Assembly (NCBI GenBank): GCA_020148145.1
Contig: JAHCRE010000016.1
Location: 4,456 to 68,455, forward strand
Direction: 5' to 3'
From: Patescibacteria group bacterium
GTDB taxonomy: Bacteria; Patescibacteriota; Minisyncoccia; Minisyncoccales; JAHCRE01
DNA: 64,000 nt
The translations under genes were made by a program, and so were the position numbers. Shown piece after piece: positions 6,676 to 43,735 of the stretch; position 1 is the first letter of the stretch; each line of letters opens with the position of its first letter. Under the pieces are notes generated by a model. The model saw nothing but the letters and a program-made list of their open reading frames with translations, did not search any database and had not been told where the DNA came from.

Positions 6676-6775
6676 GAAGGTGATTAGAAGAATTTGCTAA
6701 AATAATTCATCAAAAATTCGATACAAAGGTCGATTATTTATATTATTACTCCAAATAAAATCATTAAATGTAAAA

Positions 6776-7480
6776 ATGGTGGAATATAAATGGCTTTCGC
6801 CAAAAATTAAAAGAACCCAAGCGATAGTAAAACCGATGCTAAGGATGCTTGAGAGAGAGGGAAAGAACCTCAGAGTTCTGGATGCAGGATGCGGAGATGG
6901 GACGGTTTCAGAAGTAATAGTGAGATCGGGATACCAGGTTTGGGGAATTGATACAAATCCAGAGGTGCTTAAAGAAGCTCAAAAAAGAGGAGTAAAAATT
7001 TTTGAAGGAGAGTTAGAGAAAGAGCTTCCTTTTGAAAATGAATCCTTTGATGCGGTTTGGTGTTTAAGAGTTCTTGAACATATTTACCATACTGAGCATT
7101 TCTTAAAAGAATGTCACCGAGTATTAAAACAAAAAGGGGAGTTGATTGTTACTGCCCAAAATATGACCTCTTTGACTAATCGGATAAGGATTCTTTTTGG
7201 AGCTTATCCCCTTTGGGTTGCTCCGAGTGAAAACTATCCCTATAAAAACCATTCTCGATTTGCTGACCATATGAGATGCTTTACTAAATCTACCCTTGAA
7301 GAAGTTTTAAAAAAAGCTGGTTTTAAGGTTGAGAGAATTACGGCTGATTTTATTTGTTTTAATCCTGGCCAATATAATTCTCCTCCCTGGTCAGGATTTT
7401 TGGGAAAAATTTGCCCCAGTTTGGGAAAAATTTGCCCCAGTTTGGGAGAAACTTTAATTGCTAAGGCAAGAAAAATATAG
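6776..7480 (+). CDS. class I SAM-dependent methyltransferase
   Basis: 234 aa. Motif I VLDAGCGDG and the downstream acidic loop. Contains the GKICPSL tandem duplication. Confidence 0.85.
   Translation: MVEYKWLSPKIKRTQAIVKPMLRMLEREGKNLRVLDAGCGDGTVSEVIVRSGYQVWGIDTNPEVLKEAQKRGVKIFEGELEKELPFENESFDAVWCLRVLEHIYHTEHFLKECHRVLKQKGELIVTAQNMTSLTNRIRILFGAYPLWVAPSENYPYKNHSRFADHMRCFTKSTLEEVLKKAGFKVERITADFICFNPGQYNSPPWSGFLGKICPSLGKICPSLGETLIAKARKI
7399..7448 (+). repeat. 21-bp tandem duplication (2.4 copies) inside the methyltransferase gene
   Basis: tttgggaaaaatttgccccag occurs twice, then tttgggag. It encodes LGKICPS LGKICPS LGE. Confidence 0.9.
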
Positions 7481-7527
7481 ATGCTGAAAATTAAGGAAAT
7501 TAAAACGAAATTGTTTGTTAAAAAATT

Positions 7528-8091
7528 ATGAATCCACATATTTCTCTTGCTAAATTGGCGGTTGAAACTTATATCAAGGAAGGGAAAATAATTTCTCCGC
7601 CTGATGATTTGCCAGCAGAATTTTTTAAAAAAAAGGCAGGAACTTTTGTGACCATTGAGAAAAGTGGAGATTTAAGGGGTTGTATTGGGACTTATTTGCC
7701 TCTTCGGCAGAATATTGCTGAAGAAATAATCAAAAATGCCATTGCGGCAGCTACTGAAGATTATCGATTTGGGCTAATCAAAGAAGAAGAGCTTCTCCAC
7801 CTCTCTTTTACTGTTTACATTTTAAATGAACCGGAATTGGTTAAAAATACTTCTGAGTTAGATTCAAAGAAATATGGAATAATTGTCAAAACCGTACCTA
7901 TTACCAAGTCGAATGGTACTGATGTAGTTTTTAATGGTCATGTTCCTCACAAGAGCGGACTTTTACTTCCTGATTTAGATGGCGTGGATACTGTAGAAAA
8001 ACAAATTTCTATTGCCTGCCAAAAAGGGGGAATTGATCCGAAATCTGAGAAAATTTTAATTTATAAATTTACAGTAGAGAAATATCAATAA
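7528..8091 (+). CDS. amrA: AMMECR1-domain protein (AmmeMemoRadiSam system protein A)
   Basis: 187 aa. Hallmark AGTFVTIEKSGDLRGCIGT motif. Confidence 0.85.
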   Translation: MNPHISLAKLAVETYIKEGKIISPPDDLPAEFFKKKAGTFVTIEKSGDLRGCIGTYLPLRQNIAEEIIKNAIAAATEDYRFGLIKEEELLHLSFTVYILNEPELVKNTSELDSKKYGIIVKTVPITKSNGTDVVFNGHVPHKSGLLLPDLDGVDTVEKQISIACQKGGIDPKSEKILIYKFTVEKYQ

Positions 8092-27307: not shown

Positions 27308-28213
27308 TTATTCAGAAAGCGTATTGAATGCTTCTTCGGTACTGGTTGTAGTGTTACCCACAGCATCAGCAGAGCTCACTAGATAATGGTAAGTAGTGCT
27401 TGGAGTTAAACTGAATAGTGCGATGTTATGATCTAATACTAAATCGAGAGAACTCTCCATCGGCGTTGAATCTGGTATAACAAGCGGAGTCACTGTATCA
27501 TACCACACCTTACTATCTGCTGGCTCGTTGGTAAGCCAAGTAATCATCGTTGATGTTGTAGTGGTATCTATGGCACTAAGTTCTGAAATAACGGGCGCTA
27601 TAGTGTCCGGAGTGGGTGTTTCTTCTTCTAGTTTTTTAGCAATACCGGGGGGAAGTTTTTGTCCAGGCAATGGCTTAGGCTCAAATCCAAGTTTTTTTCT
27701 AATTCCTGGCGCAATTAAAAGACCAAGTGGCACTTTACCAGACTCGCCGGCACCTTCCTCAAGTAGCTCGTTTATTCTAGATAATGTTTTGGGCCCGACC
27801 ACTCCGACCTGCTCAATGCCTGCTATTTTCTGAAATCTTTTTACCGCATTCCTTGTTAATGGGCCAAAGTATCCTGTAACCAGTCCTTCAGGATAAATGT
27901 CTGGGTCTGTTGCTAATATTTCTTGTAATAACTTAACGTCTTCCCCGGTCATGCCTGTTCGCAGTTGCCTAATTAGCTTAAGAGTTTCTTTAATCTCTTT
28001 TTCTATCTTCTTTACTTCCAGCCTTGCTTGTCTTAATGTTTCTATCTGAGCAATTAATGCTTCTATCTGCGCCCTTAATTTTTCTATCTGTTCTTGCAAT
28101 AATTGAAGGAGTTCCTGTACTGAAGGAGTGTTTGTTGTTTGCGCAAAAACGGGTATATACAAAACACCAAGCAAAATAGTCACACCAAGAAGAATGCCAA
28201 TAATTTTATTCAT
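27308..28213 (-). CDS. secreted peptidoglycan-binding protein with coiled coil and FN3-like C-terminal domain
   Basis: 301 aa. Signal peptide. PG_binding_1-like motif (GEDVKLLQEIL..GYFGPLTRNAVKRFQ). The C-terminal ITWLTNEPADSKVWYD..TTYHYLV domain is similar to the one in 17704-19854. Confidence 0.75.
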   Translation of the reverse strand: MNKIIGILLGVTILLGVLYIPVFAQTTNTPSVQELLQLLQEQIEKLRAQIEALIAQIETLRQARLEVKKIEKEIKETLKLIRQLRTGMTGEDVKLLQEILATDPDIYPEGLVTGYFGPLTRNAVKRFQKIAGIEQVGVVGPKTLSRINELLEEGAGESGKVPLGLLIAPGIRKKLGFEPKPLPGQKLPPGIAKKLEEETPTPDTIAPVISELSAIDTTTTSTMITWLTNEPADSKVWYDTVTPLVIPDSTPMESSLDLVLDHNIALFSLTPSTTYHYLVSSADAVGNTTTSTEEAFNTLSE

Positions 28214-28357: not shown

Positions 28358-28735
28358 ATAAAAAAAGAAGGGGATCGAAATTATTAATAGTGATCCCCTA
28401 TGAATGGTTGGGCGGAGTTTTCTCCGTAAGGAGAAATCTCTGCAATTTCATTTCCAACGTAAGCTGTTGGATAGCTTTTAGCCTTTCGGCTATAAGCTAC
28501 CTTTTTGTGAGCATCTTCCGAAGAAAATGCTCTTTTGCTCTCGCTAGAAACGAGATTGAAGGGAGCCCCTTCCATATACCTGGCTTGATAGCCTGCCTTG
28601 GTAAAGCCTAAGCCCTACAAAGTACTCACTATTTTTTCCTTTCGGAAAAAGAATTTCTTCCTTCTTTTTGGGAACAAACAGGAGGTCACAGACATACTGC
28701 ACAGGATTGCAACAGTGATCCCTCTTCACTCTGCG
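28358..28735 (-). ncRNA. candidate structured ncRNA (about 380 nt) adjacent to the arrays; possible tracrRNA-like component
   Basis: - Minus-strand promoter TTGACA-16-TAATAT (plus coords 28764-28769 / 28742-28747).
- Terminator GGGGATC-N15-GATCCCC + TTCTTTTTTT (28370-28398).
- Several GNRA/UNCG-capped stems (CCGAAAGG, CUUCGGAAG, GCCGAAAGGC, CCUUACGGAG).
- Only short overlapping ORFs on both strands.
- The 3' part, AGAUUUC-UCCUUAC-GGAGAA, is complementary to the repeat segment UUCUCCGAAAUCU. Confidence 0.5.
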
Positions 28736-28870
28736 AGTTTCATATTAGCAAACCCAAGTATGTTGTCAAGTCCGTATAAAGTGAAAAAACTGTGGAAAAC
28801 TTTTACCCCGAGAAAAGCCGCAGAACCAGAATAAATTCGGTTCATAGTTTCGCTCTCGGGCGGGCGTAAA

Positions 28871-28891
28871 TAAAAAAGCCCTAAATAGGGC
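28871..28891 (-). terminator. intrinsic terminator closing array A1
   Basis: Minus strand reads GGCCCTATTTAGGGC + TTTTTT. The same hairpin recurs at the end of A2, A3, A4, A5 and A6. Confidence 0.65.
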
Positions 28892-28913
28892 CTAAATTTA
28901 TGGAACAGTTCGT

Positions 28914-29345
28914 AGTTACAGATTAAATCACTCGGAACAATACATGAAATAGGTTACAAGATTTCGGGAAAAACTCGGCATCTCGTTACGTATTTGATGG
29001 AAAAGCCTCACTTTATTACAAGATTTCGGGAAACCCAGGAATCGTCGTGGATTACAAAATTTCGGAAAGCAATAACTATGGAGATTACAAAGATTTCGAA
29101 GAATCACCAGCCTCACGGATTACAAGGTTTTGGAAAATTGCGATGAAGTATATATCAAGGCATTACAAGATTTCGGGGAATCGTTTCCTATGTGTGCATA
29201 ATTACAAGATTTCGGGAAATCGGATAATAGATGAGCGTCCATTACAAAGTCGCCGTAAGCACTGTTACGAGGTATACTGGGTAACGCAATTACAAGATTT
29301 CTGAGATTTTGCGCGGTAGTTTCGAATTACAAGATTTCGGAGAAT
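28914..29345 (-). CRISPR. CRISPR-like mini-array A1 (about 11 units)
   Basis: Units start (plus coords) at 28952, 29014, 29050, 29083, 29118, 29161, 29200, 29240 (degenerate), 29288 and 29325. Consensus ATTACAAGATTTCGGRRAAT. Variant repeat GTTACAGATTAAATCAC at 28914. Unit periods mostly 33-48 bp (62 bp at the degenerate distal end). Confidence 0.6.
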
Positions 29346-29394
29346 TTTAGGCATCAGCATTTTGGAGGATCGCTTCAAGCTTCGGTGACCGTGA

Positions 29395-29508
29395 GTTATT
29401 TGCTTTTCAACGAACTACTTATCTCCTCCATATTCCCTGGGGAATACTTTATGAGATATTATGGGCATGTAACATACCCGGGTATGGAAAAGCCTTGCTT
29501 TTCCATCC
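29395..29508 (-). ncRNA. conserved structured leader RNA L1 (tracr/scout-like candidate)
   Basis: Three hairpins on the minus strand: AUGGAAAAGC-AAG-GCUUUUCCAU (29484-29506), GGGUAUG-UUA-CAUGCCC (29463-29479) and UAUUCC-CCAG-GGAAUA (29431-29446). Then an invariant GGAGGAGAUAAGUAGUUCGUUGA. Paralogs L2-L6. Confidence 0.6.
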
Positions 29509-29514
29509 TTTTTA

Positions 29515-29543
29515 AGGGTAGCAAAAGAGAGATTCTTTGTCAA
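29515..29543 (-). promoter_or_regulatory. promoter of cassette A1
   Basis: Minus strand TTGACA (29538-29543), 17 bp, TACCCT (29515-29520). Confidence 0.55.
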
Positions 29544-29560
29544 TGTGGGTGGGCAAAATA

Positions 29561-29580
29561 AAAAAGCCCTAAATAGGGCC
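29561..29580 (-). terminator. intrinsic terminator closing array A2
   Basis: Minus strand GGCCCTATTTAGGGC + TTTTTTATTTT. Confidence 0.65.
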
Positions 29581-29613
29581 TGAGTTTAAAGAATAAGGAA
29601 GCTACATGAAAGT

Positions 29614-30315
29614 GTTACAGATTGAATCGCTTTCAACCCGGCATAATTTTTATCGAATTACGAGATTTCGGAGAATTTCAGGGGTAAACAGATTTGCTTG
29701 ATTACAAGATTTTAGAAAATCTGAGACGATTTATTGTTACTGCACGATGATACTCTTATACTCTGCCATTACAAGATTTTGGAGCTTAGGGAAATGTTCA
29801 TTACAAGATTTCGGAGAATCGTTTCCTATGTGTGCATAATTACAAGATTTTGGGAAATCGGACATGTGGTCTTCTTATTACAAGATTTCGTCGCATTTCC
29901 AGTTACAGATTAAATCGCTTTTTGTGGCAATGATAACTGGCGATGGGGTTACAGGGTTACAAGATTTCGGACACTTTGCTAATGGCGTTACAAAGTCGGA
30001 ATCAGCATGTAGTTACAAGATTGACATTAGGTAGATATTACAAGATCTCAGAAGAAATCCATTATCAAATTACAAAGATTTCGGAGAATAGCACATACTG
30101 AAGGTCCTTTAATTACAAGACTTCGGGAGACGACAGTTAGTCCTGGAATCGTTACCTTTTTAATCTTTTGGCGATTGCGAAAACGATGGACAGGTATTAC
30201 AAGATTTCAGCACAGTGAAAACAACAGTGAGAACAGTTACGCGCTGGATTATTCTCACAGATTACGAGGCTTCGGGAAATCATTAGGGTTCTCTAATTAC
30301 GAGATTTCGGATAAA
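29614..30315 (-). CRISPR. CRISPR-like mini-array A2 (about 17 units)
   Basis: Main repeat at 29657, 29701, 29768, 29800, 29839, 29877, 29956, 30037, 30069, 30112, 30196, 30261 and 30296. Degenerate copies at 29986 and 30012. Variant repeat GTTACAGATTRAATCGCTT at 29614 and 29902. Confidence 0.6.
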
Positions 30316-30379
30316 GCCTTTGAATATGGTTACTTCGCACCTTAAACCGGCGTTACCCTGTCATCAGCGTGACAACTTA

Positions 30380-30502
30380 TTACTGACTTCTTTGTTTGTC
30401 AACGAACTACTTATCTCCTCCATATTCTTTTGGGAATACTTTGGAAGACATTATGGGCATGTAACATACCCTTGGATAGAAAAGCCTTGCCTTTCTATCC
30501 GC
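30380..30502 (-). ncRNA. conserved structured leader RNA L2
   Basis: Paralog of L1 with the same three hairpins (GGAUAGAAAGGCAAGGCUUUUCUAUCC; GGGUAUGUUACAUGCCC; UAUUC-CCAAAA-GAAUA) and GGAGGAGAUAAGUAGUUCGUUGACAAAC. Confidence 0.6.
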
Positions 30503-30508
30503 TGACTA

Positions 30509-30537
30509 AGATTAGCAGAGGTATGCTTAGTTGTCAA
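30509..30537 (-). promoter_or_regulatory. promoter of cassette A2
   Basis: Minus strand TTGACA (30532-30537), 17 bp, TAATCT (30509-30514). Confidence 0.6.
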
Positions 30538-30564
30538 ATAAAAAGGGCGCTGCTTTGCAGCGCC
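30538..30564 (-). terminator. intrinsic terminator after the helicase gene
   Basis: Minus strand GGCGCTGC-AAA-GCAGCGCC + CTTTTTATTT, located 10 nt after the stop. Confidence 0.75.
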
Positions 30565-30573
30565 ACAAGAAAT

Positions 30574-32406
30574 TTAGGATTCTTTGGTTAAGAGTCGCAG
30601 TCCCTCCTCAAGGCATTCATCGAAAGGTGCTTCGAAACGTGCCCCTTCTAGCCACTCTGGTAAACCTCCTAAGACTCTGTTGAATTGCTTGGAAATAAAG
30701 AAGCACATTCCGATATCCTCTGCTGTTCGGATATTCCGACCTCTTACTTGTAGAGCCTTTACTGTAACTCGATATTTTATTAATCTCCAGCGCAATACTC
30801 CCCATCGTCTTTCCTCAAACTGTGATGCAGGATCCATTGGTCGTGGATATGGAGGTCTCAAGACCCAAATTACCGGAGCAATCTCTCTTGGTAAGTCGAT
30901 TCCTTCGCCGAATTGGGCTACTGTTCCAAGTAAGACATCGCCCTCACCTTCAATAAATCTCCTGGCAGCATCTTTCGCCTTTAATCCTGGTCCATAGGTC
31001 ATTATTTTGAAATCTTTGGAATGTCTTTCCAAAAATTTTAATCGCTCAGCTTCTGAGACAACGGTGATCAAAGATCGGAATTCCTTTTTCAGAAACTCAC
31101 GGCAACCTTTAGCAATTATGCTAAATGCTCGATTTTTTGCCCTAGCCAGTGCTCCTCTGCCTGGGTTAGCTTTCACTGCTAAATTCGGCGTATCGGTCGG
31201 TAGAAAGACTCTCGTATTTTCAATTGGGAAGGTTGATGTATAAACCTGGAAAGGAAAATCTATTCCTGTCTCAATGGCAAAGGTTTCTTTATCGCCTATC
31301 GTTGCCGAGTAAGCAATAATCCTTTCAATAGGCTCTAAAATTTTCAACCGAATCACCGGACTAACATAGAAGTGTCGAATACATAACTTACAGATTACTC
31401 TTGGCCCTCTCTTGCCCCTTTTCCTTCTCTTTTTCCTGTAGAACATAAAGACGTAATTCGATGGCTTCCGTGTTTCTGTACCTGTGGCATAGAATAATTC
31501 TTTGATATACCAGGGAATATGCCGAACAACTATTTCAAGGGTCTTCAAAGTTTTTCTATCTTTTTTTGGGTCTAAAATACCAAGTTCTAAGGCTTTATTG
31601 ATTGTCCCTCTAAGCTCTTTGGTATTTATTTCCTCGAGCAAAGAAATCAATCTTTTGATTTCATGGTCTGCTAAAAGCTCGGGTGGTTCCGTTGGTTTTA
31701 ATTTGGCAATCTTCATCATCTCTTCTAAGAATCTTTCCAGCAACCATTCTCTTCTAATCACTGATAATGCCTTTATCGCTCTTTTTAAGGTAAGGCCACT
31801 GATATCCCAAGAAAGAATCTGCCTTGTTACTTCGGCTAACCTATGAACTTCATCGATCACCAGTACCTTCGGTGGCGAAGCCTTGAATTTTTTCACGTAT
31901 AGCATGTGAGTGACAAGGTAAGCAATTGTGCAGACAATTATGTCTCCTTTCATTGCCCGGTGCTTTACCAAGAGATAAGGACAAGGCTCAACTCCTGGTT
32001 CTACTGTCTTGCCAGTGTCGAGATCTACCCTATGGGGACATTTTAACAATGAGCAAGGTGATTCTTCGGCTGTCACCTTTTCTCTTTTATCTTTGTAGAA
32101 AAGACAAGGATACTCATTCCTTCCATAGGCCTCTACCACTCCCTCTGGATACATTTTTTTGGCTTGTCTAACTAAAGTTTTGGTGGTGGTAGCGTAAATA
32201 ATTGGTTTTACCCCTATTTCCTTAAAGGCTTTTAAAGGAGTAACGCCAGTTGCTGTCTTTCCTCTTCCAGTTGGCATCTCGTGAAGACTTTTTTTGTGGT
32301 AGGCGATGAACTCTAGAGCGGCTCTCTGATCAGGCCTCATTTTCTTATGAGGGAAGCGTTTCTTAAACTCTTCAGACAGATGTTGCGGATGTTCCAGATG
32401 TTTCAT
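30574..32406 (-). CDS. XPD/DinG/Rad3-family SF2 helicase with Fe-S cluster domain, array-associated
   Basis: 610 aa.
- Q-like RPDQ.
- Motif I EMPTGRGKTA.
- Four Cys between motifs Ia and II (C101, C118, C123, C142; YGRNEYPC..SPCSLLKCPH..EPCPY).
- Motif II VLVIDEVH.
- Motif III YSATI.
- Motif V GTVAQFGEGIDLP.
- Motif VI QVRGRNIRTAEDIG.
Own SD AAAGAGGTGAA. Confidence 0.85.
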   Translation of the reverse strand: MKHLEHPQHLSEEFKKRFPHKKMRPDQRAALEFIAYHKKSLHEMPTGRGKTATGVTPLKAFKEIGVKPIIYATTTKTLVRQAKKMYPEGVVEAYGRNEYPCLFYKDKREKVTAEESPCSLLKCPHRVDLDTGKTVEPGVEPCPYLLVKHRAMKGDIIVCTIAYLVTHMLYVKKFKASPPKVLVIDEVHRLAEVTRQILSWDISGLTLKRAIKALSVIRREWLLERFLEEMMKIAKLKPTEPPELLADHEIKRLISLLEEINTKELRGTINKALELGILDPKKDRKTLKTLEIVVRHIPWYIKELFYATGTETRKPSNYVFMFYRKKRRKRGKRGPRVICKLCIRHFYVSPVIRLKILEPIERIIAYSATIGDKETFAIETGIDFPFQVYTSTFPIENTRVFLPTDTPNLAVKANPGRGALARAKNRAFSIIAKGCREFLKKEFRSLITVVSEAERLKFLERHSKDFKIMTYGPGLKAKDAARRFIEGEGDVLLGTVAQFGEGIDLPREIAPVIWVLRPPYPRPMDPASQFEERRWGVLRWRLIKYRVTVKALQVRGRNIRTAEDIGMCFFISKQFNRVLGGLPEWLEGARFEAPFDECLEEGLRLLTKES

Positions 32407-32458
32407 TCAATATTCACCTCTTTTTAAGGTTCTATAGATGGCAAAAGCCACCGTCAAT

Positions 32459-32487
32459 AAATTAGCACATTTTAAAATTTATGTCAA
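32459..32487 (-). promoter_or_regulatory. promoter of the helicase gene
   Basis: Minus strand TTGACA (32482-32487), 17 bp, TAATTT (32459-32464). Confidence 0.6.
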
Positions 32488-32488
32488 G

Positions 32489-32510
32489 AAAAAAAAGGCG
32501 CAAAAGCGCC
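32489..32510 (-). terminator. intrinsic terminator after the Cas12/TnpB-like gene
   Basis: Minus strand GGCGC-TTTT-GCGCC + TTTTTTTT, overlapping the TAG stop. Confidence 0.75.
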
Positions 32511-34447
32511 TAGTTGGTTTTGGGTTCCTCCATTGAAACTAAAGCTATGGCTAGATTCGTGTTGGTATCCCTTCCACACTCACATGTAAGGCTTTTTCGA
32601 TCTTCGACTATCACTAAATTCTGCCAGGTTCCTCCAATTTCCTTTTCGCAATAAGGACAGACTGCCACTTGATTCGCATTAAATTCTCTCTCTTCCACAG
32701 GGAATCCCCGCATTTCCAATTTATATCCTATTCGAGCCCTAAAGATTGAGTCAATCCAGTATCGCAGTTTTCTATTTAGTTCTCGCCTTTCTATCTCTCC
32801 TCTTCTGTAAAGTCTCTTTTGGATGTTCAGTAAAATCACTTTACCCGGCATTGTCATCAAGTACTCAGCTATCCCTTTTGTCTCATTGTGCAAGACCCAC
32901 TTTATCTTCCTTGACTCTTTTAACCTTGGTTTCTTGAAATATCCCCGAGAAGCTTCTTTCCTTTGCTTGAAGTAGTAGTTCTTAATTGAGATTATTTCTT
33001 TGTGTCGGAAAAACCTCACTTTTCTTTGATCTTCTTTAATACTGAGTACACAGGTCGTCTCTAGACAATAGGCAATGATGTGCAACCAGCCCTGGTCTTC
33101 CTTTAAAGGGACTACCTTTGTTAAAGGAAAGATGAAGAAATATTCTTTCTTTTGTCCTTTCCCAATGTGACGGAATAACTCTGGATATCTCGTAGGGTCG
33201 CCAAAGACACGCTCAGCTTTATGATATTCCTCAATCCACCTGGTACCAATGATTAAACCTTCTTTTCTCTTGCCTCTTTCCCAAAGGCCAATGCTGATTT
33301 TCCAAAGACCTAGCTCAACCCTGATGAATTTGTACATTCCTTTTGAGTATTTCACCTTCGTTGTTGGAAAGCTTGGAATCCTATCTGGCCTTATTTTTCT
33401 GAATTCTCTATCTAGCTGACATTCTGGCCCCCAATCGTATTCTCTGTAGTTTTCGCATCCTTCGCAGATTGGCGTTGCTATCCTCTTTACAATCTCCGTA
33501 GTCTTTGCTTTTCCCTCCGAAATCATGACTTTCCTTCCGAGATTCACTCTCGTTCTTTTTAAGCGTTGGAGTTCCTCCTTTATCGTTTTCTTTTGCTTCC
33601 TATCCGTTGCAACTTTAAGAAATCCTTCTGCCTTTTTTATTTCTTGCTCAATGCTTCTGAGTATCTCTTTTTTAGCCTCAATTTTCCTCAATGTCCTCGA
33701 AGATATTTCCTTTGGCTTCTCTTGCAAAAGTTCATTGATTCCTCTTAACCTTTCTCTTCTTTTTTTTCTGTTTTTCTTTGTGATATCCTGGCCTAACCAA
33801 TAGAAGAGGAAGTGTCTAAAGGGCGAAATTAGGGCTCTTGTCTCTCGCCATTCATTTCTAATTTCTTGTATCTCCTGCGGTTCATCAACGGGTTCTTTTC
33901 CTATTCCGCTCTCTTTACATTCTTTGAATTTTCTCTGAAACTCATTTTTCTTTAAGATTTTTCCCCAGTTGTTGCTTAACCAAGCATTCATCATTGACTG
34001 GGCAGCAGTGAAGGCTAAATCGATGAAGGTCTTTAATGGAATCTTAAAGATTCTCTTTGCTTCATAGGCAACTTCTTGCCGGGCTATTTTCCCAAAAATA
34101 TAAGACCTTGCACAGGCAGAGCAATACTTTTGACCATCGAATTTTGATTCCATCACCAAATTCGTTTCTTTTTGGCAATTAGCGCAGACTCCTTTTTCTT
34201 TTGGAATGATGTAAAATCTCCTAAGTCTTTGAGAAAATCTTCGCATGCAAAACTCACCAGCCCTGCTAAACTCATCGATCAATCTCTCAAAGTCTTGCTC
34301 TGGAATTCCGGCTATTCTCAAAGGGATTCCAAGAGTCACTATATTGAATCTTGTCTGGCATTCCTCGCAAGCCATCGGATTTTTCTTTCCTGAAATCTTA
34401 ATTTCAACCTGGCATTCCGGATTCGGACATTTTACTTTTTTTACCAA
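32510..34447 (-). CDS. TnpB/Cas12-like (type V-like) RNA-guided effector candidate with apparently degenerate RuvC
   Basis: 645 aa. TTG start 7 nt after GGAGG.
- The C-terminal third matches the TnpB/Cas12 core: YWIDSIFRARIGYKLEMRGFPVEE (YK.E..G.V block), Zn finger CPYC..x19..CEC, and RuvC-III-like GRDTNTNLAIAL.
- The RuvC-I position reads IIAYCLETT (no GxDxG).
- The RuvC-II position reads VILLNIQ (no Glu).
- Three further Zn-ribbon-like Cys pairs lie in the N-terminal and central parts: CPNPEC..CEEC, CANC..CSAC and CEGC..C. Confidence 0.7.
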   Translation of the reverse strand: MVKKVKCPNPECQVEIKISGKKNPMACEECQTRFNIVTLGIPLRIAGIPEQDFERLIDEFSRAGEFCMRRFSQRLRRFYIIPKEKGVCANCQKETNLVMESKFDGQKYCSACARSYIFGKIARQEVAYEAKRIFKIPLKTFIDLAFTAAQSMMNAWLSNNWGKILKKNEFQRKFKECKESGIGKEPVDEPQEIQEIRNEWRETRALISPFRHFLFYWLGQDITKKNRKKRRERLRGINELLQEKPKEISSRTLRKIEAKKEILRSIEQEIKKAEGFLKVATDRKQKKTIKEELQRLKRTRVNLGRKVMISEGKAKTTEIVKRIATPICEGCENYREYDWGPECQLDREFRKIRPDRIPSFPTTKVKYSKGMYKFIRVELGLWKISIGLWERGKRKEGLIIGTRWIEEYHKAERVFGDPTRYPELFRHIGKGQKKEYFFIFPLTKVVPLKEDQGWLHIIAYCLETTCVLSIKEDQRKVRFFRHKEIISIKNYYFKQRKEASRGYFKKPRLKESRKIKWVLHNETKGIAEYLMTMPGKVILLNIQKRLYRRGEIERRELNRKLRYWIDSIFRARIGYKLEMRGFPVEEREFNANQVAVCPYCEKEIGGTWQNLVIVEDRKSLTCECGRDTNTNLAIALVSMEEPKTN

Positions 34448-34603
34448 ACTCTCACCTCCCGACCATTACGCCGCGTTTCATACCCATCCATTTCTTTGAT
34501 GGGCTTCTCCCCTTTACAATCCTTTTAGACTGCTTTAGAGAGATTTAGGCGGTGAAACACCACCCTTTGCACCCATCATCTAATTGTCAAGATGCTAACT
34601 TCA

Positions 34604-34632
34604 AATATAACAAAAAATGAAAATTTTGTCAA
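34604..34632 (-). promoter_or_regulatory. promoter of the Cas12/TnpB-like gene
   Basis: Minus strand TTGACA (34627-34632), 17 bp, TATATT (34604-34609). Leaves a 5' UTR of about 150 nt that contains a second TTGACA (34585-34590) and small hairpins. Confidence 0.65.
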
Positions 34633-34696
34633 ATAAAACCGAGTGAAACTCTCGGGGGTGGGCGACGGCGAAAATAGAAAAGCCCTAAATAGGGCT
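34631..34696 (-). terminator. tandem terminators closing array A3
   Basis: Minus strand AAGCCCTATTTAGGGCT + TTTCTATTTT (34671-34696), then CCGAG-AGTTTCA-CTCGG + TTTTATTT (34631-34658). Confidence 0.65.
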
Positions 34697-34729
34697 TAAG
34701 GCTTAAAAGTATTATGACATGGGAATCTA

Positions 34730-35060
34730 ATTACAAATTCAAATGGACGGATTATTACTGTCATCCAAGCATTGTTACAGATTAAGTCGCTTCCAACTTG
34801 GCATAATTTTTATCGAATTACAAAATTTCGGAGGATCAGATTTCCAGCTATTACAAGATTTCGGAAGACCTCACCGACGATTGGAATTACAGGACTTCAG
34901 AGATGTGTATAATTACAAAATTTCGGAAAGTCACTAGGGTCAAATTGGTTACCTTTTTAAGCTTTTCGAAGACGATGGACAAGTATTACAAATGTCTGAA
35001 ATCTGCGGAAATTACAAGATTGCAGAGAATGGCTTCGACGGTTACAAGATTTCGGGAAAT
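34730..35060 (-). CRISPR. CRISPR-like mini-array A3 (about 9 units)
   Basis: Main repeat at 34817, 34850, 34886, 34912, 34985, 35011 and 35041. Degenerate copy at 34730. Variant repeat at 34774. The distal ~140 bp are nearly identical to the distal end of A6. Confidence 0.6.
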
Positions 35061-35136
35061 CGATGTATCATTGCACTTGTTACCTCTTTAGTCTTTTAGA
35101 TGAACGAGGCAGGTCGAGGAGTTAATCTTTTCCACC

Positions 35137-35260
35137 GAACAACACTGTCTTTTTGTTTTCAAAGAACTATTTACCTCCTCCATGGTCCCTGGGACCACTT
35201 TGAGAAATATTATGGGCATGTAACATACCCAGGTATAGAAAAGCCTTGCCTTTCTATCCA
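35137..35260 (-). ncRNA. conserved structured leader RNA L3
   Basis: Paralog of L1. Hairpin 3 is GGUCC-CAG-GGACC here versus UAUUCC..GGAAUA in L1, a compensatory change. Hairpin 1 is UAGAAAGGC-AAG-GCUUUUCUA. Confidence 0.6.
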
Positions 35261-35266
35261 TTTTTA

Positions 35267-35295
35267 AAAATAGCAAAAGAGAGATTCTTTGTCAA
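35267..35295 (-). promoter_or_regulatory. promoter of cassette A3
   Basis: Minus strand TTGACA (35290-35295), 17 bp, TATTTT (35267-35272). Confidence 0.55.
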
Positions 35296-35318
35296 ACAAA
35301 AAAGCCCTGAATAGGGCC
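35296..35318 (-). terminator. intrinsic terminator closing array A4
   Basis: Minus strand GGCCCTATTCAGGGC + TTTTTTGTTT. Confidence 0.65.
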
Positions 35319-35350
35319 TAAGTTTAAAGAACAATTCAAAATAATCCCAA

Positions 35351-35915
35351 GTTACAAAGATGTGATTCAATATTCAATCTGTTCTTTATTACTTCACGAA
35401 CGGAGGAAAGTATGAGTTACAGTAATATTCTTTTTTTGCACCAACAGCCTTTTGTTACAGATTAAATCGCTTCCAACCTGGCATGATTCTTATCGAATTA
35501 CAAGATTTCGGAGAATCATCGGTGTGCTTCTATTACAAGGTCTCGGCAAATCTTGGGCAATGGTAGTTGCATTACAAGATTTCTGAAAATCTATCTGCTT
35601 CATTACGATAGAGTTTCGCTAACAAAGTCTCGTTGTAATGTCCGGCGTTACATACTTGAAAGTGTGAAGTTACAGATTAAATCGCTTCCTCGGAGGCTTC
35701 AGATTACAAGATTTCGGAGAATGACACATATTGAGGATCCTTTAATTACAAGATTTCGGGAAATCGGACATGTGGTCTTCTTATTACAAAATTTCGGATT
35801 TGTTCGCCCTCGCCTCAATTACAAGATTTCGGAGAATCGTTCCAGTCTGGTCGGGCGGCATTACAAGATTTTGGGAGATTATCAGAGTATATCGTAATAT
35901 TACAATAGTCATTTA
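35351..35915 (-). CRISPR. CRISPR-like mini-array A4 (about 13 units)
   Basis: Main repeat at 35497, 35532, 35571, 35703, 35745, 35783, 35818 and 35860. Degenerate copies at 35351, 35602 and 35899. Variant repeat at 35454 and 35669. Spacers between clean repeats are 15, 19, 11, 22, 18, about 15-19 and 22 nt. Confidence 0.65.
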
Positions 35916-35997
35916 GGAACATCGACGTTACTCTACATCTTAAACCAGCGTTACTCTTGAATAAACGGGATAGGTCGAAGAGTTAATCTTTTTCATT

Positions 35998-36122
35998 GAA
36001 CAACACTGTATCCTCTGTTTTTCAAAGAACTATTTACCTCCTCCATGGTCCCTGGGACCACTTTGAGAGATATTATGGGCATGTAACCTACCCAGGCATA
36101 GAAAAGCTTTACCTTTCTATCC
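35998..36122 (-). ncRNA. conserved structured leader RNA L4
   Basis: Paralog of L3 with the same three hairpins and GGAGGAGGUAAAUAGUUCUUUGAAAAAC. Confidence 0.6.
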
Positions 36123-36128
36123 ATTTTA

Positions 36129-36157
36129 AAGGTAGCAAAAGAGAGGCTTTTTGTCAA
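36129..36157 (-). promoter_or_regulatory. promoter of cassette A4
   Basis: Minus strand TTGACA (36152-36157), 17 bp, TACCTT (36129-36134). Confidence 0.55.
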
Positions 36158-36169
36158 TGTGGGCGACCA

Positions 36170-36193
36170 AAACAAAAAAGCCCTGAATAGGGC
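36170..36193 (-). terminator. intrinsic terminator closing array A5
   Basis: Minus strand GGCCCTATTCAGGGC + TTTTTTGTTTT. Confidence 0.65.
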
Positions 36194-36226
36194 CTGAGGT
36201 TAAAGAACAATTTGGTAAATGTATCC

Positions 36227-36642
36227 GTTACAAGGGAAAAGCTCGTTTTAAATTACTGCACTACCGATGAGTAAGTGGTTGGGCGAAAGGTTACAGGTTA
36301 CGGCAACACCTCGAAGCACTGTTACAGATTAAATCGCTTTTTTCTTTTGTTTCCTATTATATCTTGACGCCAATTACAAGATTTCGGAAATACCGCGGGC
36401 TCTTATTACAAGATTTCGGATTTGTTCGCCCTCGCCTCAATTACAAGATTTCGGTGAATCGGATATCCCTTATTACAAGATTTCGGAAAATAGCACTAAT
36501 AAGCGAAGCTGGGTTACAAAATTTCGGAAAATGATTGTCAGAGTATTACAAGCTTCATAGGTTGGGACCCGGGGACCGTATTACAAGATTTCGAAAGATC
36601 GCAATGAAATATATCTCGAGGCATTACAAAATTTCAGGAAAT
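36227..36642 (-). CRISPR. CRISPR-like mini-array A5 (about 10 units)
   Basis: Main repeat at 36373, 36405, 36440, 36472, 36513, 36545, 36580 and 36623. Degenerate copy at 36227. Variant repeat at 36321. Confidence 0.6.
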
Positions 36643-36710
36643 AGTATATGACCAATGTTACTTTTCTAAGCTTTGGGGCCAAAGAGATGAAACGTTACCT
36701 CTTTTCCATC

Positions 36711-36835
36711 GAACAACACTGTATCCTCTGTTTGTCAAAGAACTATTTACCTCCTCCATGGTCTCTGGGACCACTTTGTGAGATATTATGGGCATGTAAC
36801 ATACCCAGAGATAGAAAAGCCTTGCCCTTCTATCC
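36711..36835 (-). ncRNA. conserved structured leader RNA L5
   Basis: Paralog of L3/L4. The tail reads GGAGGAGGUAAAUAGUUCUUUGACAAAC. Confidence 0.6.
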
Positions 36836-36841
36836 CTTTTA

Positions 36842-36870
36842 AAGGTAGCAAAAGAGAGATTCTTTGTCAA
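36842..36870 (-). promoter_or_regulatory. promoter of cassette A5
   Basis: Minus strand TTGACA (36865-36870), 17 bp, TACCTT (36842-36847). Confidence 0.55.
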
Positions 36871-36880
36871 TGTGGACGGG

Positions 36881-36908
36881 CGAAAATAAAAAAGCCCTAA
36901 ATAGGGCT
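36881..36908 (-). terminator. intrinsic terminator closing array A6
   Basis: Minus strand AAGCCCTATTTAGGGCT + TTTTTATTTTC. Confidence 0.65.
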
Positions 36909-36941
36909 TAAGGCTTAAAAATATTATGACATGGGAATCTA

Positions 36942-37500
36942 ATTACAAATTCAAATGGACGGATTATTACTGTCATCCAAGCATTGTTACAGATTAAATC
37001 GCTTTCAACCTGGCATAATTTTTATCGAATTACAAAATTTCGGATTTGTTCGCCCTCGCCTCAATTACAAGATTTCGGGAGATTAAAGATAAAAGTCGTT
37101 GTCTACGAGTTCGATGAAATTACATGAAACATTTTCAGACTCATGGTGTTACTAGGCTACTTGAATCAGCTTGAATTACAAGATTTCGGAGGATCAACCA
37201 ATTGGCGGCATATTACAAGATTTCGGAAGATCGCTCGATCAAATTACCCCAACGAGTCTTCAAATTACAAGATTTCGTCGTATTTCCAGTTACAGATTAA
37301 ATTGCTTCCTCGGAGACTTCAGATTACAAGATTTCGGATAATGGAAGGTGGTTACTTTTGACAACAGCAAATAAACGAGTTCGCATTACAAAATTTTGGA
37401 GAATCCACGTGTCACAAACCATGTTATCGATCAGTTACAGGGGTGAGGAATTACAAGATCTCGGAATTCTCATTGAATGGGAATTACATGATGTTTTGAC
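36942..37500 (-). CRISPR. CRISPR-like mini-array A6 (about 13 units)
   Basis: Main repeat at 37029, 37064, 37175, 37212, 37264, 37323, 37385 and 37450. Degenerate copies at 36942, 37119 and 37483. Variant repeat at 36986 and 37289. Confidence 0.6.
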
Positions 37501-37504
37501 TTAT

Positions 37505-37626
37505 ATTACTGACTTCTTCGCTTGTCAAAGAACTATTTACCTCCTCCATATTCTTGAGGAATACTTCGGTAGATATTATGGGCATGTAACATACCCGTGG
37601 ATAGAAAGGTATACCTTTCTATCCGC
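37505..37626 (-). ncRNA. conserved structured leader RNA L6
   Basis: Paralog of L2. Hairpin 1 is a perfect 11-bp stem GGAUAGAAAGG-UAUA-CCUUUCUAUCC. Hairpin 3 is UAUUC-CUCAA-GAAUA. Confidence 0.6.
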
Positions 37627-37632
37627 TGATTA

Positions 37633-37661
37633 AGATTAGCAGAGACATATTCATTTGTCAA
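37633..37661 (-). promoter_or_regulatory. promoter of cassette A6
   Basis: Minus strand TTGACA (37656-37661), 17 bp, TAATCT (37633-37638). Confidence 0.6.
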
Positions 37662-37666
37662 GCAAA

Positions 37667-37771
37667 GCCCCGAGACTACAACCCACCCAAGGACGGGGCG
37701 TTTCGCTTCGCAAAAGCGCCTCGCGTCCCGACCACATCCTCCCGCCTTCGGTGGGCCCCTAAACTCTCGGG
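37667..37771 (+). repeat. family A long-form GC-rich element; right copy of the 104-bp identical direct-repeat pair
   Basis: Identical over 104 bp to 26843-26946, in the same orientation. Confidence 0.85.
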
Positions 37772-37853
37772 CGGGCGCGGGCAGTGGGCAAAAATAAAAA
37801 AGCTGAGGATTTAACTCAGCTCATAGTGGTTTTGAAAAAGAGAGCCTCTATAA

Positions 37854-38474
37854 TCATTTAGTTTCTTGAGTTATTGATTTTGGATTTCCACAGATAATAG
37901 TTGAGATTACTGACAGTCCTGAACGTTCTATTTCTTGTCTGTTCTTAAGTAGACTCTCTGGTTTATGGCAGATGGTATACGCGTTTACTGGTAATCCTAA
38001 GCGTTTTAATTTTCGTTTGTTTTTAAGTAGACTCTCTGGTCTGCAGCAGATAGTAGTTGCATTTACTGATAGTCCTAGGCGTCTCAGTTCCTGTCTTTTT
38101 TTAAGCAGGTTTCCTGGAATCAAGGCTATAGTTGTTGAAGTTACTGGCAACCCTAAGCGTTTTAATTCTCTTAATCTCCCTGGGTTTCTTAGAGCTATTT
38201 TTTTGCTAAATCCTGCTTTTTCGAATTCCCTGATTAAGGAATGCATAAATTTGTTTATCTCTGAGGGATCAAATTTAAATAAGTATTCACCCGCTGCCTC
38301 ATGTTTAGCAATAATGCTAGCGAATTGACTCTCAATACCTCTAATTTCTAGTTTATGCCTTAACCATTTCCAGGGCCCTTTCCTTTTATCTGAACTGAAG
38401 ATTTCTAATAGTGTTTCTTCAATTTTAGGATTAACTTGAACGGCTTTATAGGCTATGCCTGGGTATGGATTCAT
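37854..38474 (-). CDS. helical-repeat protein with four to five 26-aa mTERF-like repeats
   Basis: 206 aa. The C-terminal half is made of tandem units GL[PS]V..TI...P..LLK....L.RL. Examples: GLPVTSTTIALIPGNLLKKRQELRRL, GLSVNATTICCRPESLLKNKRKLKRL, GLPVNAYTICHKPESLLKNRQEIERS. Terminator hairpin at 37810-37835. Confidence 0.55.
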   Translation of the reverse strand: MNPYPGIAYKAVQVNPKIEETLLEIFSSDKRKGPWKWLRHKLEIRGIESQFASIIAKHEAAGEYLFKFDPSEINKFMHSLIREFEKAGFSKKIALRNPGRLRELKRLGLPVTSTTIALIPGNLLKKRQELRRLGLSVNATTICCRPESLLKNKRKLKRLGLPVNAYTICHKPESLLKNRQEIERSGLSVISTIICGNPKSITQETK

Positions 38475-38627
38475 TTTCCTCCTTCTCTCCTTTCCCCATT
38501 TTTAATGAACTTTAATATCTATTTATATATGATTGCTGAAGATTTGTCAAAGAGATAAAAAAACCAAAACCCCCGAGAGAAAAGCTCTCGGGGGGCGGCT
38601 CGGTCTCTCGAACCGAGCACAAGCCTG

Positions 38628-38698
38628 TTCCGGGGCTTGGATTCGAACCAAGATTGGAGCCTTCAAAGGGCCCTGTCCTACCATTAGACGACCCCGGA
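38628..38698 (-). tRNA. tRNA-Gln (anticodon UUG)
   Basis: 71-nt cloverleaf read on the minus strand: TCCGGGG-TC-GTCT-AATGGTA-GGAC-A-GGGCC-CTTTGAA-GGCTC-CAAT-CTTGG-TTCGAAT-CCAAG-CCCCGGA-A. No encoded CCA. Confidence 0.9.
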
Positions 38699-41675: not shown

Positions 41676-42665
41676 TTACGATTTCATTATATCATATAAT
41701 AAAGTTTTGTCAATAGTTATCTTGAAATAAAAAGAGAGCGAATTAAATTCGCTCTTATTTTCTGGGATTTCCAAATTCAACTTTTCTTTCAAATCTTTGT
41801 AGCGATTCCTGACTGTAACTTCAGTAATGTCAACAGCATCGGCAAAGTCTTTTTGTGTCCTTTTCTCATTATTTTGCAAACAAGCAATATATAAAACGGC
41901 ACAAGCTATACCCCGAGGACCCCTACCAGAAGTAAGACGTTTTTCTCGGGCCTGGTGAAGAATTCTTATGGCTAATCCTTGAGTTTCTCCAGAGATATAG
42001 AGTATTTCAGCAATCTTTGAAATATAGTCGACTGGATTAAGAATAGGCATTGTAATATTAAGTCCTTTAAGTAAAAGTCGGTAACAGTGACCGATTTCTT
42101 TTTTTGATACTAAACTGGCTTTGGCAATTTCTTGGAGGGCTCTAAGGGTTCCAGTCCTTCGGCAGGCTGCATAAAGGGCGGCAGCAGCAATAGCAATAAT
42201 TGATCTACCGCGAACCAGGCCTTCTTTTAAGGCCTTGCGATAAATAACCGCTGCTTCTTTTTGGACTGGCTTTGGAATGTTAAGCCTATTTGAAAGACGA
42301 TCAAGCTCTTCCATTGCCTTGGCTAAATTTCTCTGGATTGCTGAGTGGTATCTGGAACGTATTTGCCATTTTCTTAGACGCCACATTTGGGACTTAGTGC
42401 CTCTGGGAAGTTTTTTTCCGAAAGCATCATAATCTATTGGACTCATAGTAGTCGGTAAACCTTTATCATGAATCAAAAGAGATTCTGGCGCTCCAGCCCG
42501 GGCCCTTTTCTCTTTTTCTTCTTGAGTAAAAGCTCGCCAATCACGTCCTCTATCAATTATTGGCCTTATGACAAAACCGCAATTCCCGCAAACAATTTCG
42601 CCCAAATCATCATCACGAATAAGATTTTGGCTCCCGCATTCTGGACATTTTTCAACTAATTCCAT
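41676..42665 (-). CDS. archaeal-type transcription initiation factor TFB/TFIIB homolog
   Basis: 329 aa. Zn ribbon CPECGS..CGNCGFVI. B-reader/linker RDWRAF..GAPESLLIHDKGLPT. RLRKWQIR. Two cyclin-fold repeats. C-terminal TEVTVRNRYKDL. Driven by TTGACA-17-TATTAT and SD AAGGAGGTGAGAAA. Confidence 0.85.
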   Translation of the reverse strand: MELVEKCPECGSQNLIRDDDLGEIVCGNCGFVIRPIIDRGRDWRAFTQEEKEKRARAGAPESLLIHDKGLPTTMSPIDYDAFGKKLPRGTKSQMWRLRKWQIRSRYHSAIQRNLAKAMEELDRLSNRLNIPKPVQKEAAVIYRKALKEGLVRGRSIIAIAAAALYAACRRTGTLRALQEIAKASLVSKKEIGHCYRLLLKGLNITMPILNPVDYISKIAEILYISGETQGLAIRILHQAREKRLTSGRGPRGIACAVLYIACLQNNEKRTQKDFADAVDITEVTVRNRYKDLKEKLNLEIPENKSEFNSLSFYFKITIDKTLLYDIMKS

Positions 42666-42823: not shown

Positions 42824-43735
42824 TCAAATCGAAATTATAAAGAGCAACCTTTCCGCTAACTCCTTATATCTATTTCTTATCGTAACTTCGGTTACTTGGG
42901 CAATTTCAGCAATATCTTTTTGAGTGTTCCTTTCACCAGTTAATACTGATGCTATATAACTGGAGGCAGCAGCTATTCCTGTTGGGCCTCTTCCCGATGT
43001 GAGTCTCAGTTCTTTTGCTACAACAAGAATTTTATGAGCAATTTCTTCAACCTTTCCCTGCATAGTTAGTTGGTTGGAAAACTTGGTTATATATTGGCTA
43101 GGTTTTATTGGTGGAATAAAGTAATCAAGCTCTTTAACAAGAAATCGATATCTACTCCCTACTTCTTTTTTATCAACATTAGAAGCTTGAGCAACTTCAT
43201 TAAGAGTTCGTGCAAGTCCACATTTTCTACAGGCTATATATATAGCAGCAGCAGTTATACTTTGAACAGATCTACCCCTAACAAGTCCTTTTTTAGCTGC
43301 TTTTCTATAAATAACAGAAGCAGTTTCTAGAGCATTTTTTGGTAAGTTGAGACTATTAGCTATTTTAGAAATTTTAGGTAAAGCAAAGGCTAAATTTCTT
43401 TCTGGAGCATTTGAAATCCTTATTCTTTTTTGCCATTTCCTTAATCTATGAATCTGAGCTTTTTGTTCAGGGGTTAATTTTGTTCCGAAAACATCGCTAT
43501 CACGCCAATCTATCAATGTAGATAATCCTTTATCATGAATTGTCTGAGTTAGAGGTGCTCCAACTCTTACGCGTTTTGCTCTTTGCTCGTCGTCAAAAGC
43601 CCGCCATTCAGCTCCTCTGTCTACTATTCGGCTTATGACAAAACCGCAATTCCCACAAACAACTTCACCTAATGAATCGTAATCATAAATAAGATTTGGG
43701 CTCCCACATTCTGGACATTTATCAGTTAATCCCAT
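42824..43735 (-). CDS. archaeal-type transcription initiation factor TFB/TFIIB homolog (second copy)
   Basis: 303 aa. CPECGS..CGNCGFVISR..GAEWRAFDDEQRAKRVRVGAPLTQTIHDKGLST, RLRKWQKR, two cyclin repeats, TEVTIRNRYKEL. Confidence 0.9.
   Translation of the reverse strand: MGLTDKCPECGSPNLIYDYDSLGEVVCGNCGFVISRIVDRGAEWRAFDDEQRAKRVRVGAPLTQTIHDKGLSTLIDWRDSDVFGTKLTPEQKAQIHRLRKWQKRIRISNAPERNLAFALPKISKIANSLNLPKNALETASVIYRKAAKKGLVRGRSVQSITAAAIYIACRKCGLARTLNEVAQASNVDKKEVGSRYRFLVKELDYFIPPIKPSQYITKFSNQLTMQGKVEEIAHKILVVAKELRLTSGRGPTGIAAASSYIASVLTGERNTQKDIAEIAQVTEVTIRNRYKELAERLLFIISI

Follow-up and report, generated by a model that had tools for sequence, protein, structure and literature searches.

The 64,000-nt stretch of DNA analyzed here (the window) lies on contig C7 of a Patescibacteria group bacterium (JAHCRE010000016.1) and carries an island in which a Cas12f-like effector (P0001), a DinG-family helicase (P0002) and six short repeat-spacer cassettes (A1 to A6) stand together. 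We class the island as a type V system to which a helicase is dedicated, undescribed in the literature we searched, and the combination of effector, helicase and cassettes is a recurring unit. The fold of the effector and the anatomy of the island were established by the analysis. Our favored explanation, in which we place about as much belief as doubt, is that P0001 would act as a nuclease-dead, RNA-guided DNA-binding module that is supplied with guides by the mini-arrays and brings in a helicase of its own. With somewhat more reserve, we tentatively regard the system as an undescribed type V subtype that would combine recognition by a dead Cas12f-like protein, interference by a dedicated iron-sulfur (FeS) DinG helicase, independently transcribed mini-arrays and conserved structured leaders, without an adaptation module, and would be the class 2 equivalent of the CasDinG mechanism in type IV-A.

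An earlier reading of the window, made from the sequence only, had placed two protein genes and six cassettes on the minus strand. Both open reading frames (ORFs) and all six cassettes were located there, and no element of the island lies on the other strand. In the direction of transcription, the order is A6, A5, A4, A3, the effector, the helicase, A2 and A1:

36890..37661, minus strand: cassette A6, with promoter at 37661, leader 37661-37466, array 37465-37030 (8 repeats) and terminator 36916-36892
36176..36870, minus strand: cassette A5, with leader 36870-36638, array 36637-36374 (7 repeats) and terminator 36195-36178
35300..36157, minus strand: cassette A4, with leader 36157-35875, array 35874-35498 (8 repeats) and terminator 35319-35302
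34680..35295, minus strand: cassette A3, with promoter TTGACA-17-TATTTT at 35295, leader 35295-35056, array 35055-34818 (6 repeats) and terminator 34704-34680
34604..34632, minus strand: effector promoter TTGACA-17-TATATT (promoter scan)
32510..34447, minus strand: Cas12f-like effector P0001, 645 aa, TTG start
32496..32511, minus strand: terminator between effector and helicase (terminator scan)
near 32487, minus strand: promoter-like TTGACA of the helicase (promoter scan)
30574..32406, minus strand: DinG/XPD-family superfamily 2 (SF2) helicase P0002, 610 aa (Pfam/NCBIfam)
30546..30564, minus strand: helicase terminator (terminator scan)
29562..30537, minus strand: cassette A2, with leader 30537-30311, array 30310-29658 (13 repeats) and terminator 29581-29564
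28874..29543, minus strand: cassette A1, with leader 29543-29341, array 29340-28954 (8 repeats) and terminator 28893-28876

The separate promoters and terminators that the same reading had assigned to the protein genes were recovered as the effector promoter at 34632 and the terminators at 32511-32496 and 30564-30546.

The effector and the helicase

Searches with P0001 against Pfam, NCBIfam and PHROG at default thresholds returned no match. There are three close homologs among 90%-identity clusters and about 22 homologs at the 50% level, some of which have weak hits to the Cas12f1-like TNB family or to the models for guided TnpB or Cas12f2 (for P0005, Cas12f2 with an E value of 2.5e-6). An AlphaFold2 model of P0001, built on an 18-sequence family alignment, has a predicted local distance difference test score (pLDDT) of 88.5 and a predicted TM-score (pTM) of 0.72. 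In a Foldseek search with this model, Cas12f structures lead (8hr5 with an E value of 4.9e-11, then 8dzj, AsCas12f), and CasX, Cas12g, Cas12k, Cas12i, Cas12m and TnpB rank below them. With VIA-align, the Z score is 15.2 for SpCas12f1 (348 residues; positions 36-645 of the model) and 14-15 for several Cas12f proteins (350-370 residues); the scores are lower for TnpB ISDra2 (12.1), Cas12k (11.8) and Cas12m (11.5). Because both methods place Cas12f structures first, the modeled architecture of the whole protein is Cas12f-like, which bears out the TnpB/Cas12 fold proposed from the sequence and narrows it to Cas12f. A profile search against PDB aligned the P0001 family solely in the C-terminal TNB/RuvC-III region, and a phmmer search of PDB with the homolog P0008 found nothing useful.

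P0001 begins with two zinc ribbons (C7/C12/C27/C30 and C88/C91/C109/C112), followed by a helical REC/WED-like region and a RuvC-like domain. In the model, this domain comprises an RNase-H-type beta1-beta2-beta3 sheet (residues 454-481), helices and a parallel strand (535-543), and the C-terminal part contains a TNB zinc finger of the form C-x2-C...C-x-C (C597/C600/C622/C624) and a last helix (630-638).

The RuvC catalytic residues appear to be altered across the whole family, and we are moderately confident that the site is degenerate. The register comes from a low-identity MAFFT alignment of the effector family with one canonical TnpB from a relative's genome (motifs GIDVG, AFEKL and IDRDVNAA). 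In this alignment, the RuvC-I Asp of TnpB falls on C461 of P0001 (where the family has C, Y, G or A), the RuvC-II Glu on Q543 (Q, K or V) and the RuvC-III Asp on D627 (D, E, Q or I). The conserved strand VILLNIQKRLY lacks an acidic residue throughout the family. A RuvC-degenerate effector had been claimed by the sequence-only reading; the alignment extends the degenerate appearance to the family, a state that we infer rather than demonstrate, because profile-profile alignment backs only the C-terminal TNB/RuvC-III register. A different candidate for RuvC-I, E378 (IRVELGLW), was dropped, as the MAFFT alignment with TnpB puts RuvC-I on the RNase-H-fold strand 454-460.

The helicase P0002 is matched by DEAD_2, Helicase_C_2 and ResIII in Pfam and by dinG_rel, rad3 and YoaA in NCBIfam. 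It has Walker A at residues 45-51, DEVH at 185 and four cysteines at FeS positions (C101, C118, C123 and C142), which form a 4Fe-4S cluster motif and are also kept in the effector-adjacent orthologs of two loci described below, L001 and L015. Its best PADLOC model is typeIV_DinG (the CasDinG of type IV-A), matched over the full length with an E value of 8.2e-44. The family assigned from the sequence, an XPD/DinG FeS helicase, is thus right, but the likening to Csf4 goes too far: the FeS cysteines are kept, and because P0002 falls in a broad Patescibacteria "Rad3-related" lineage, it is DinG-like and not a Csf4/CasDinG ortholog. P0002 is the only DinG copy in the host genome, and the helicase is found in none of 40 same-order relatives (1 of 41 genomes with the host), which argues that it came with the island. 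The effector is present in 1 of 101 same-order genomes. Since same-order relatives lack both genes, effector and helicase appear to have been acquired together.

The mini-array cassettes and their recurrence in other lineages

All six cassettes have a common layout consisting of a TTGACA -35 box, a homologous leader, an array, a degenerate terminal repeat that is itself conserved, and an intrinsic terminator. The -35 box is placed identically in every cassette, and most -10 boxes are weak in the promoter scan. The leaders, of about 200-280 nt, are homologous to one another, with conserved hairpins, and the terminator is AGGCCCTATTYAGGGC followed by a T run, (T)6. The region has more sites resembling terminators than shuffled sequence does (20 versus 9.3 +/- 2.9). 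The earlier description of each cassette as having its own TTGACA promoter, structured leader, array and terminator agrees with what was found in six of six, and the view that the cassettes are self-contained transcription units is supported.

The core repeat is 14-16 nt long, with a minus-strand consensus of approximately GATTCTCCGAAATCTTGTAAT. When a core repeat is counted if it has at most three mismatches in 16 nt, there are about 50 in total, 6-13 per cassette, rather than the 73 or so repeat units reported at first; the spacers, initially given as 11-22 nt, are mostly 15-28 nt, and several longer stretches contain degenerate repeats. The spacer TGAGGCGAGGGCGAACAAAT is common to three cassettes (at 37063, 36439 and 35817), and two further spacers each occur in two cassettes. 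Spacers common to several cassettes point to array recombination or duplication and not to ongoing acquisition. The window repeat is found nowhere else in the genome. Searches with the 20-nt repeat gave single chance matches in only two metagenome contigs, with no arrays, and nothing in viral contigs.

Related loci are known from two other lineages, both of them distant. L001, a JGI metagenome contig, has an effector (P0005) 60% identical to P0001 and a helicase 51% identical to P0002 in the same gene order as the window, effector then DinG, together with three promoter-leader-array cassettes whose repeat, AGAGAGTTCTAATGAAAGATGGCGTGCAAC, is unlike that of the window. In the marine contigs L014, L015 and L016, of which one belongs to an NCBI assembly, DinG comes first and the effector second; here the effector (P0016) has approximately 38% identity and the helicase 40%. 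In L015, a TTGACA promoter, a leader copy of approximately 93 nt and a mini-array of two repeats separate the DinG and effector genes, and the leader occurs a second time 3' of the effector. The helicase therefore adjoins the effector in three of the three lineages with genomic context (the window, L001 and L014-L016); further members of the effector family are on contigs of 2-4 kb. The co-occurrence of genes and arrays that the sequence-only reading had named as a check on homologous loci recurs in L001 and in L014/L015/L016.

The leaders of the window and L001 align along their full length and have in common a promoter module (TTGACAA...TTTTGCTA), a hairpin (GGATAGAAAGG...CCTTTCTAT) and a GGAGGAG(A/G)TAA block. 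Their RNAalifold consensus contains 25 pairs, 7 of them with two-sided compensatory changes, and in these two lineages the leader looks like a conserved structured RNA. Repeats that vary between lineages while the leader stays are typical of CRISPR systems.

The GGAGGAG(A/G)TAA block is conserved in the window leaders at about 37540, 36770, 36050, 35190, 30430 and 29440. In the window, an ATG before the block opens a short conserved ORF (MEEVNSSL...), and in L001 that ATG is ACG; the block probably works as RNA and does not encode a peptide.

Relation to known systems and proposed mechanism

The searched literature yielded no paper in which Cas12 or TnpB is paired with DinG and no published subtype that fits the system, in line with the earlier statement that no type V subtype of this kind is known. 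Among the 43 window ORFs of at least 150 aa, PADLOC found no Cas1, Cas2, Cas4, Cas3, Cas5, Cas6, Cas7 or Cas9; for Cas1, Cas2, Cas4, Cas9 and Cas3 this had been noted before, and the genome does have a Cas1, on contig C9. We place the island as a type V system with a helicase and set it apart from known systems because Csf subunits are absent, the FeS cysteines are kept, the RuvC residues are apparently lost and an IS605 transposase is absent.

In its build, the effector is like those of type V-F (Cas12f/Cas14), a type that provides the best structural matches and resembles the island in effector size (600-700 aa), in the TNB zinc finger before RuvC-III, in the associated arrays (six in the window, three in L001 and one mini-array in L015) and in the lack of adaptation genes at the locus. 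The island effector differs in the apparent loss of the RuvC D/E/D residues (C461, Q543 and D627, from a low-identity alignment) and in its extra N-terminal zinc ribbons, and the island differs in its dedicated FeS-DinG partner and its several separately promoted mini-cassettes with structured leaders; an anti-repeat was not identified.

In the way it would work, the island resembles type IV-A (Csf1-3, Cas6 and CasDinG/Csf4), where Csf complexes recruit CasDinG (PMC10450177) and a DinG-family 5'->3' helicase is likewise dedicated to an RNA-guided module at a locus without adaptation genes. However, one Cas12-like protein, as in class 2, forms the targeting module of the island in place of a Cas7/Cas5/Cas8 Csf complex; Csf2 (Cas7), Csf3 (Cas5), Csf1 (Cas8) and Cas6 were not found by PADLOC in the same set of ORFs. 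Moreover, P0002 keeps its FeS cysteines, whereas the FeS domain of CasDinG is vestigial and without them (PMC10450177, PMC11981726).

Class 1/class 2 hybrids pair Cas12m or Cas12h with Cas3, and the helicase has been proposed to add interference beyond DNA binding (Altae-Tran et al. 2023, PMC10910872; PMC10691335). They resemble the island in joining a Cas12 effector (apparently nuclease-inactive in the case of Cas12m) to an SF2 helicase of another CRISPR class, but the island helicase is of the DinG/XPD FeS type, without an HD or other nuclease domain, and its effector is nearer Cas12f than Cas12m (VIA-align Z 15.2 versus 11.5). Nuclease-dead Cas12f has also been exapted with partners, as with sigma-E in RNA-guided transcription (PMC13472631). 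The dCas12f-sigmaE and TldR systems (PMC13472631) share with the island a nuclease-dead protein derived from Cas12f or TnpB, a partner, and guides from CRISPR-like arrays; the island partner, however, is a DNA helicase in all three loci and not a sigma factor or helix-turn-helix (HTH) protein, and the host is a small-genome bacterium (0.3-0.9 Mb in its order), not a member of the Bacteroidetes. The island also differs from an IS200/IS605 TnpB transposon, as the window has no transposase and the arrays are separately promoted cassettes instead of an omega-RNA 3' of tnpB.

In the mechanism that we propose, each cassette would be transcribed constitutively and independently into a leader with repeat-spacer units. 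The Cas12f-like protein would bind the cassette RNAs, perhaps via the short repeat or via the hairpins conserved in the leaders, with one spacer serving as the guide. The effector would scan DNA and form an R-loop at spacer-matching sites without cutting, because its RuvC active site appears degenerate. The bound complex would recruit its own FeS-DinG, which would load at the R-loop on the displaced strand and translocate 5'->3', unwinding the target in the manner of CasDinG on the Csf complexes of type IV-A. A target unwound or blocked in this way, which may be invader replication or transcription or a regulated host gene, would be lost or silenced through host nucleases or plain obstruction. 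As the locus lacks adaptation genes, the set of guides would either stay the same or be supplied in trans. The parts of this scheme that we infer are that the effector is nuclease-deficient, that it is loaded with crRNA, that it recruits the helicase and that interference follows. If it is true, the island would be a second, independent case, after type IV-A, of a CRISPR targeting module trading its own nuclease for a DinG-family helicase, with a single Cas12-like protein in place of the Csf complex. It would then be testable whether R-loop-triggered helicase loading generally converts RNA-guided binding into interference, and whether the FeS cluster of the helicase, lost in CasDinG, matters for an interference role. 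A compact binder that is programmed by guide RNA and coupled to a helicase would be of use as a tool, too.

Several observations weigh against this scheme. On the side of the effector, the RuvC assignment comes from a low-identity sequence alignment with one TnpB; outside the C-terminal TNB/RuvC-III region, which aligned with a probability of 18%, the profile-profile alignment with TnpB gives no confident register, and the effector may have a rearranged RuvC active site. On the side of the helicase, the relatives of P0002 form a widespread Patescibacteria lineage (43-46% identity) found in housekeeping contexts, and its tie to the effector is based on adjacency in three loci and not on a distinct helicase clade. 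On the side of the guides, the recurrence of three spacers in 2-3 cassettes is unusual for a spacer-acquiring array. Energies of leader-repeat anti-repeat duplexes, of the kind expected for a trans-activating CRISPR RNA (tracrRNA), are no better than those of shuffled leaders. Spacer self-targets in the genome do not go beyond 14-nt chance matches, and two spacers compared with IMG/VR viral contigs had no exact match. Finally, the sole public run that holds the locus is one marine-sediment DNA metagenome, and the Logan contigs of this run break at the arrays, so that array variation cannot be read from them.

The question of what the helicase does leads to the most serious alternative, in which the nuclease-dead Cas12f-like protein would act alone as an RNA-guided DNA-binding repressor (compare CRISPR interference, TldR and some Cas12m), and DinG would be a repair helicase acquired with the island and have no role in targeting. 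Nuclease-dead Cas12 and TnpB proteins have precedents as RNA-guided transcription factors (PMC13472631; Cas12m, PMC10691335), the lineage of P0002 within the candidate phyla radiation (CPR) DinG/Rad3 helicases is broad and housekeeping-like, and a host genome with no second DinG may use the island copy for the cell generally. Yet the helicase adjoins the effector in the window, L001 and L014-L016 and is missing from same-order relatives, a distribution that coupling fits better than hitchhiking, and we regard a lone repressor as unlikely.

That the effector still cuts DNA under RNA guidance through a rearranged RuvC site, with the helicase adding processive unwinding in the manner of Cas3 or CasDinG-HNH, is in our judgment improbable: neither the RuvC-I nor the RuvC-II position has a conserved acidic residue anywhere in the family. 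Most homologs do keep the RuvC-III D or E, and rearrangements of the catalytic site are known in TnpB and Cas12 clades (PMC10691335). Still harder to credit is a set of cassettes unlinked to the effector, producing regulatory small RNAs or serving as protein-binding repeat arrays whose co-occurrence with it is incidental. The short, irregular and partly shared spacers and the failure to find a tracrRNA-like anti-repeat would agree with this, but homologous leaders with lineage-specific repeats stand beside effector-helicase pairs in two other independent loci.

The island in its host genome

The favored explanation, a helicase-recruiting Cas12f-like module, includes the proposal that the island is a mobile type V-like RNA-guided system, and on this part, too, we are evenly divided between acceptance and doubt. 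The island is flanked by host genes, a peptidoglycan (PG)-binding protein (27308-28213) on one side and a DnaX/tRNA-Gln block (from 37854) on the other. Its GC content is 39.6% against 34.9% for the genome, so it is a GC-richer island, as the sequence-only reading had held; the contrast is modest, and the single-line counts offered for it (46.7% and 25%), though correct as arithmetic, make it look larger than it is. Third-codon-position GC (GC3) is 0.42 and 0.38 in the two island genes versus 0.19-0.31 in host genes. A duplicate of the tRNA-Gln 3' end (att duplication) was searched for at the island boundaries and inverted repeats at the putative island ends, and neither was found. No transposase, TnpA or recombinase was found in or beside the island, and no IS605-like ends; no sigma gene was found within it. 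These absences count against an origin of the effector from an immobilized TnpB transposon, with the arrays as multiplied omega-RNA-like guides that would direct island mobility, and in spite of the TnpB-like fold and a GC-distinct island adjoining tRNA-Gln, we give this last alternative hardly any credence.

In the Logan contigs of the sole Sequence Read Archive (SRA) run with the locus, there are loose ends at the A6 promoter (~37660) and a 440-bp skip near A1 (~28365-28806). These contig ends may reflect variation within the population in how the cassettes or the edges of the island are arranged.

Between cassette A6 and tRNA-Gln(TTG) (38627-38698) lies a 206-aa ORF, P0027 (37854-38474, minus strand), with four 26-aa tandem repeats (RLGLPVxxTTIxxxPxxLLK) and a host-like GC3; a Pfam search gave no match.

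The Cas1 of the genome is on the 8.6-kb contig C9 (locus L009, positions 6707-7759; TIGR00287, E value 7e-48) and adjoins ORFs of 635, 225 and 145 aa that are of no known kind. No array was found on this contig, nor was the window repeat. This locus is possibly a second, unclassified CRISPR system.

The genome is 809 kb in size and 96% complete, and every genome among the same-order relatives is 0.3-0.9 Mb. With these sizes, and with Patescibacteria labels on the closest helicase homologs, the host is probably a member of the CPR. It contains three Sigma70 region-2 genes, and no TATA-binding protein (TBP) was found in it. Two proteins with TFIIB and Zn-ribbon_TF domains are encoded on the minus strand of the window, at 41676-42665 and 42824-43735 (Pfam E values of 1e-44 and 3e-46). 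TFIIB-like proteins thus occur in a bacterial genome with Sigma70 and without TBP, and genes of the TFIIB-like kind are present in 4 of 41 same-order relatives as well.

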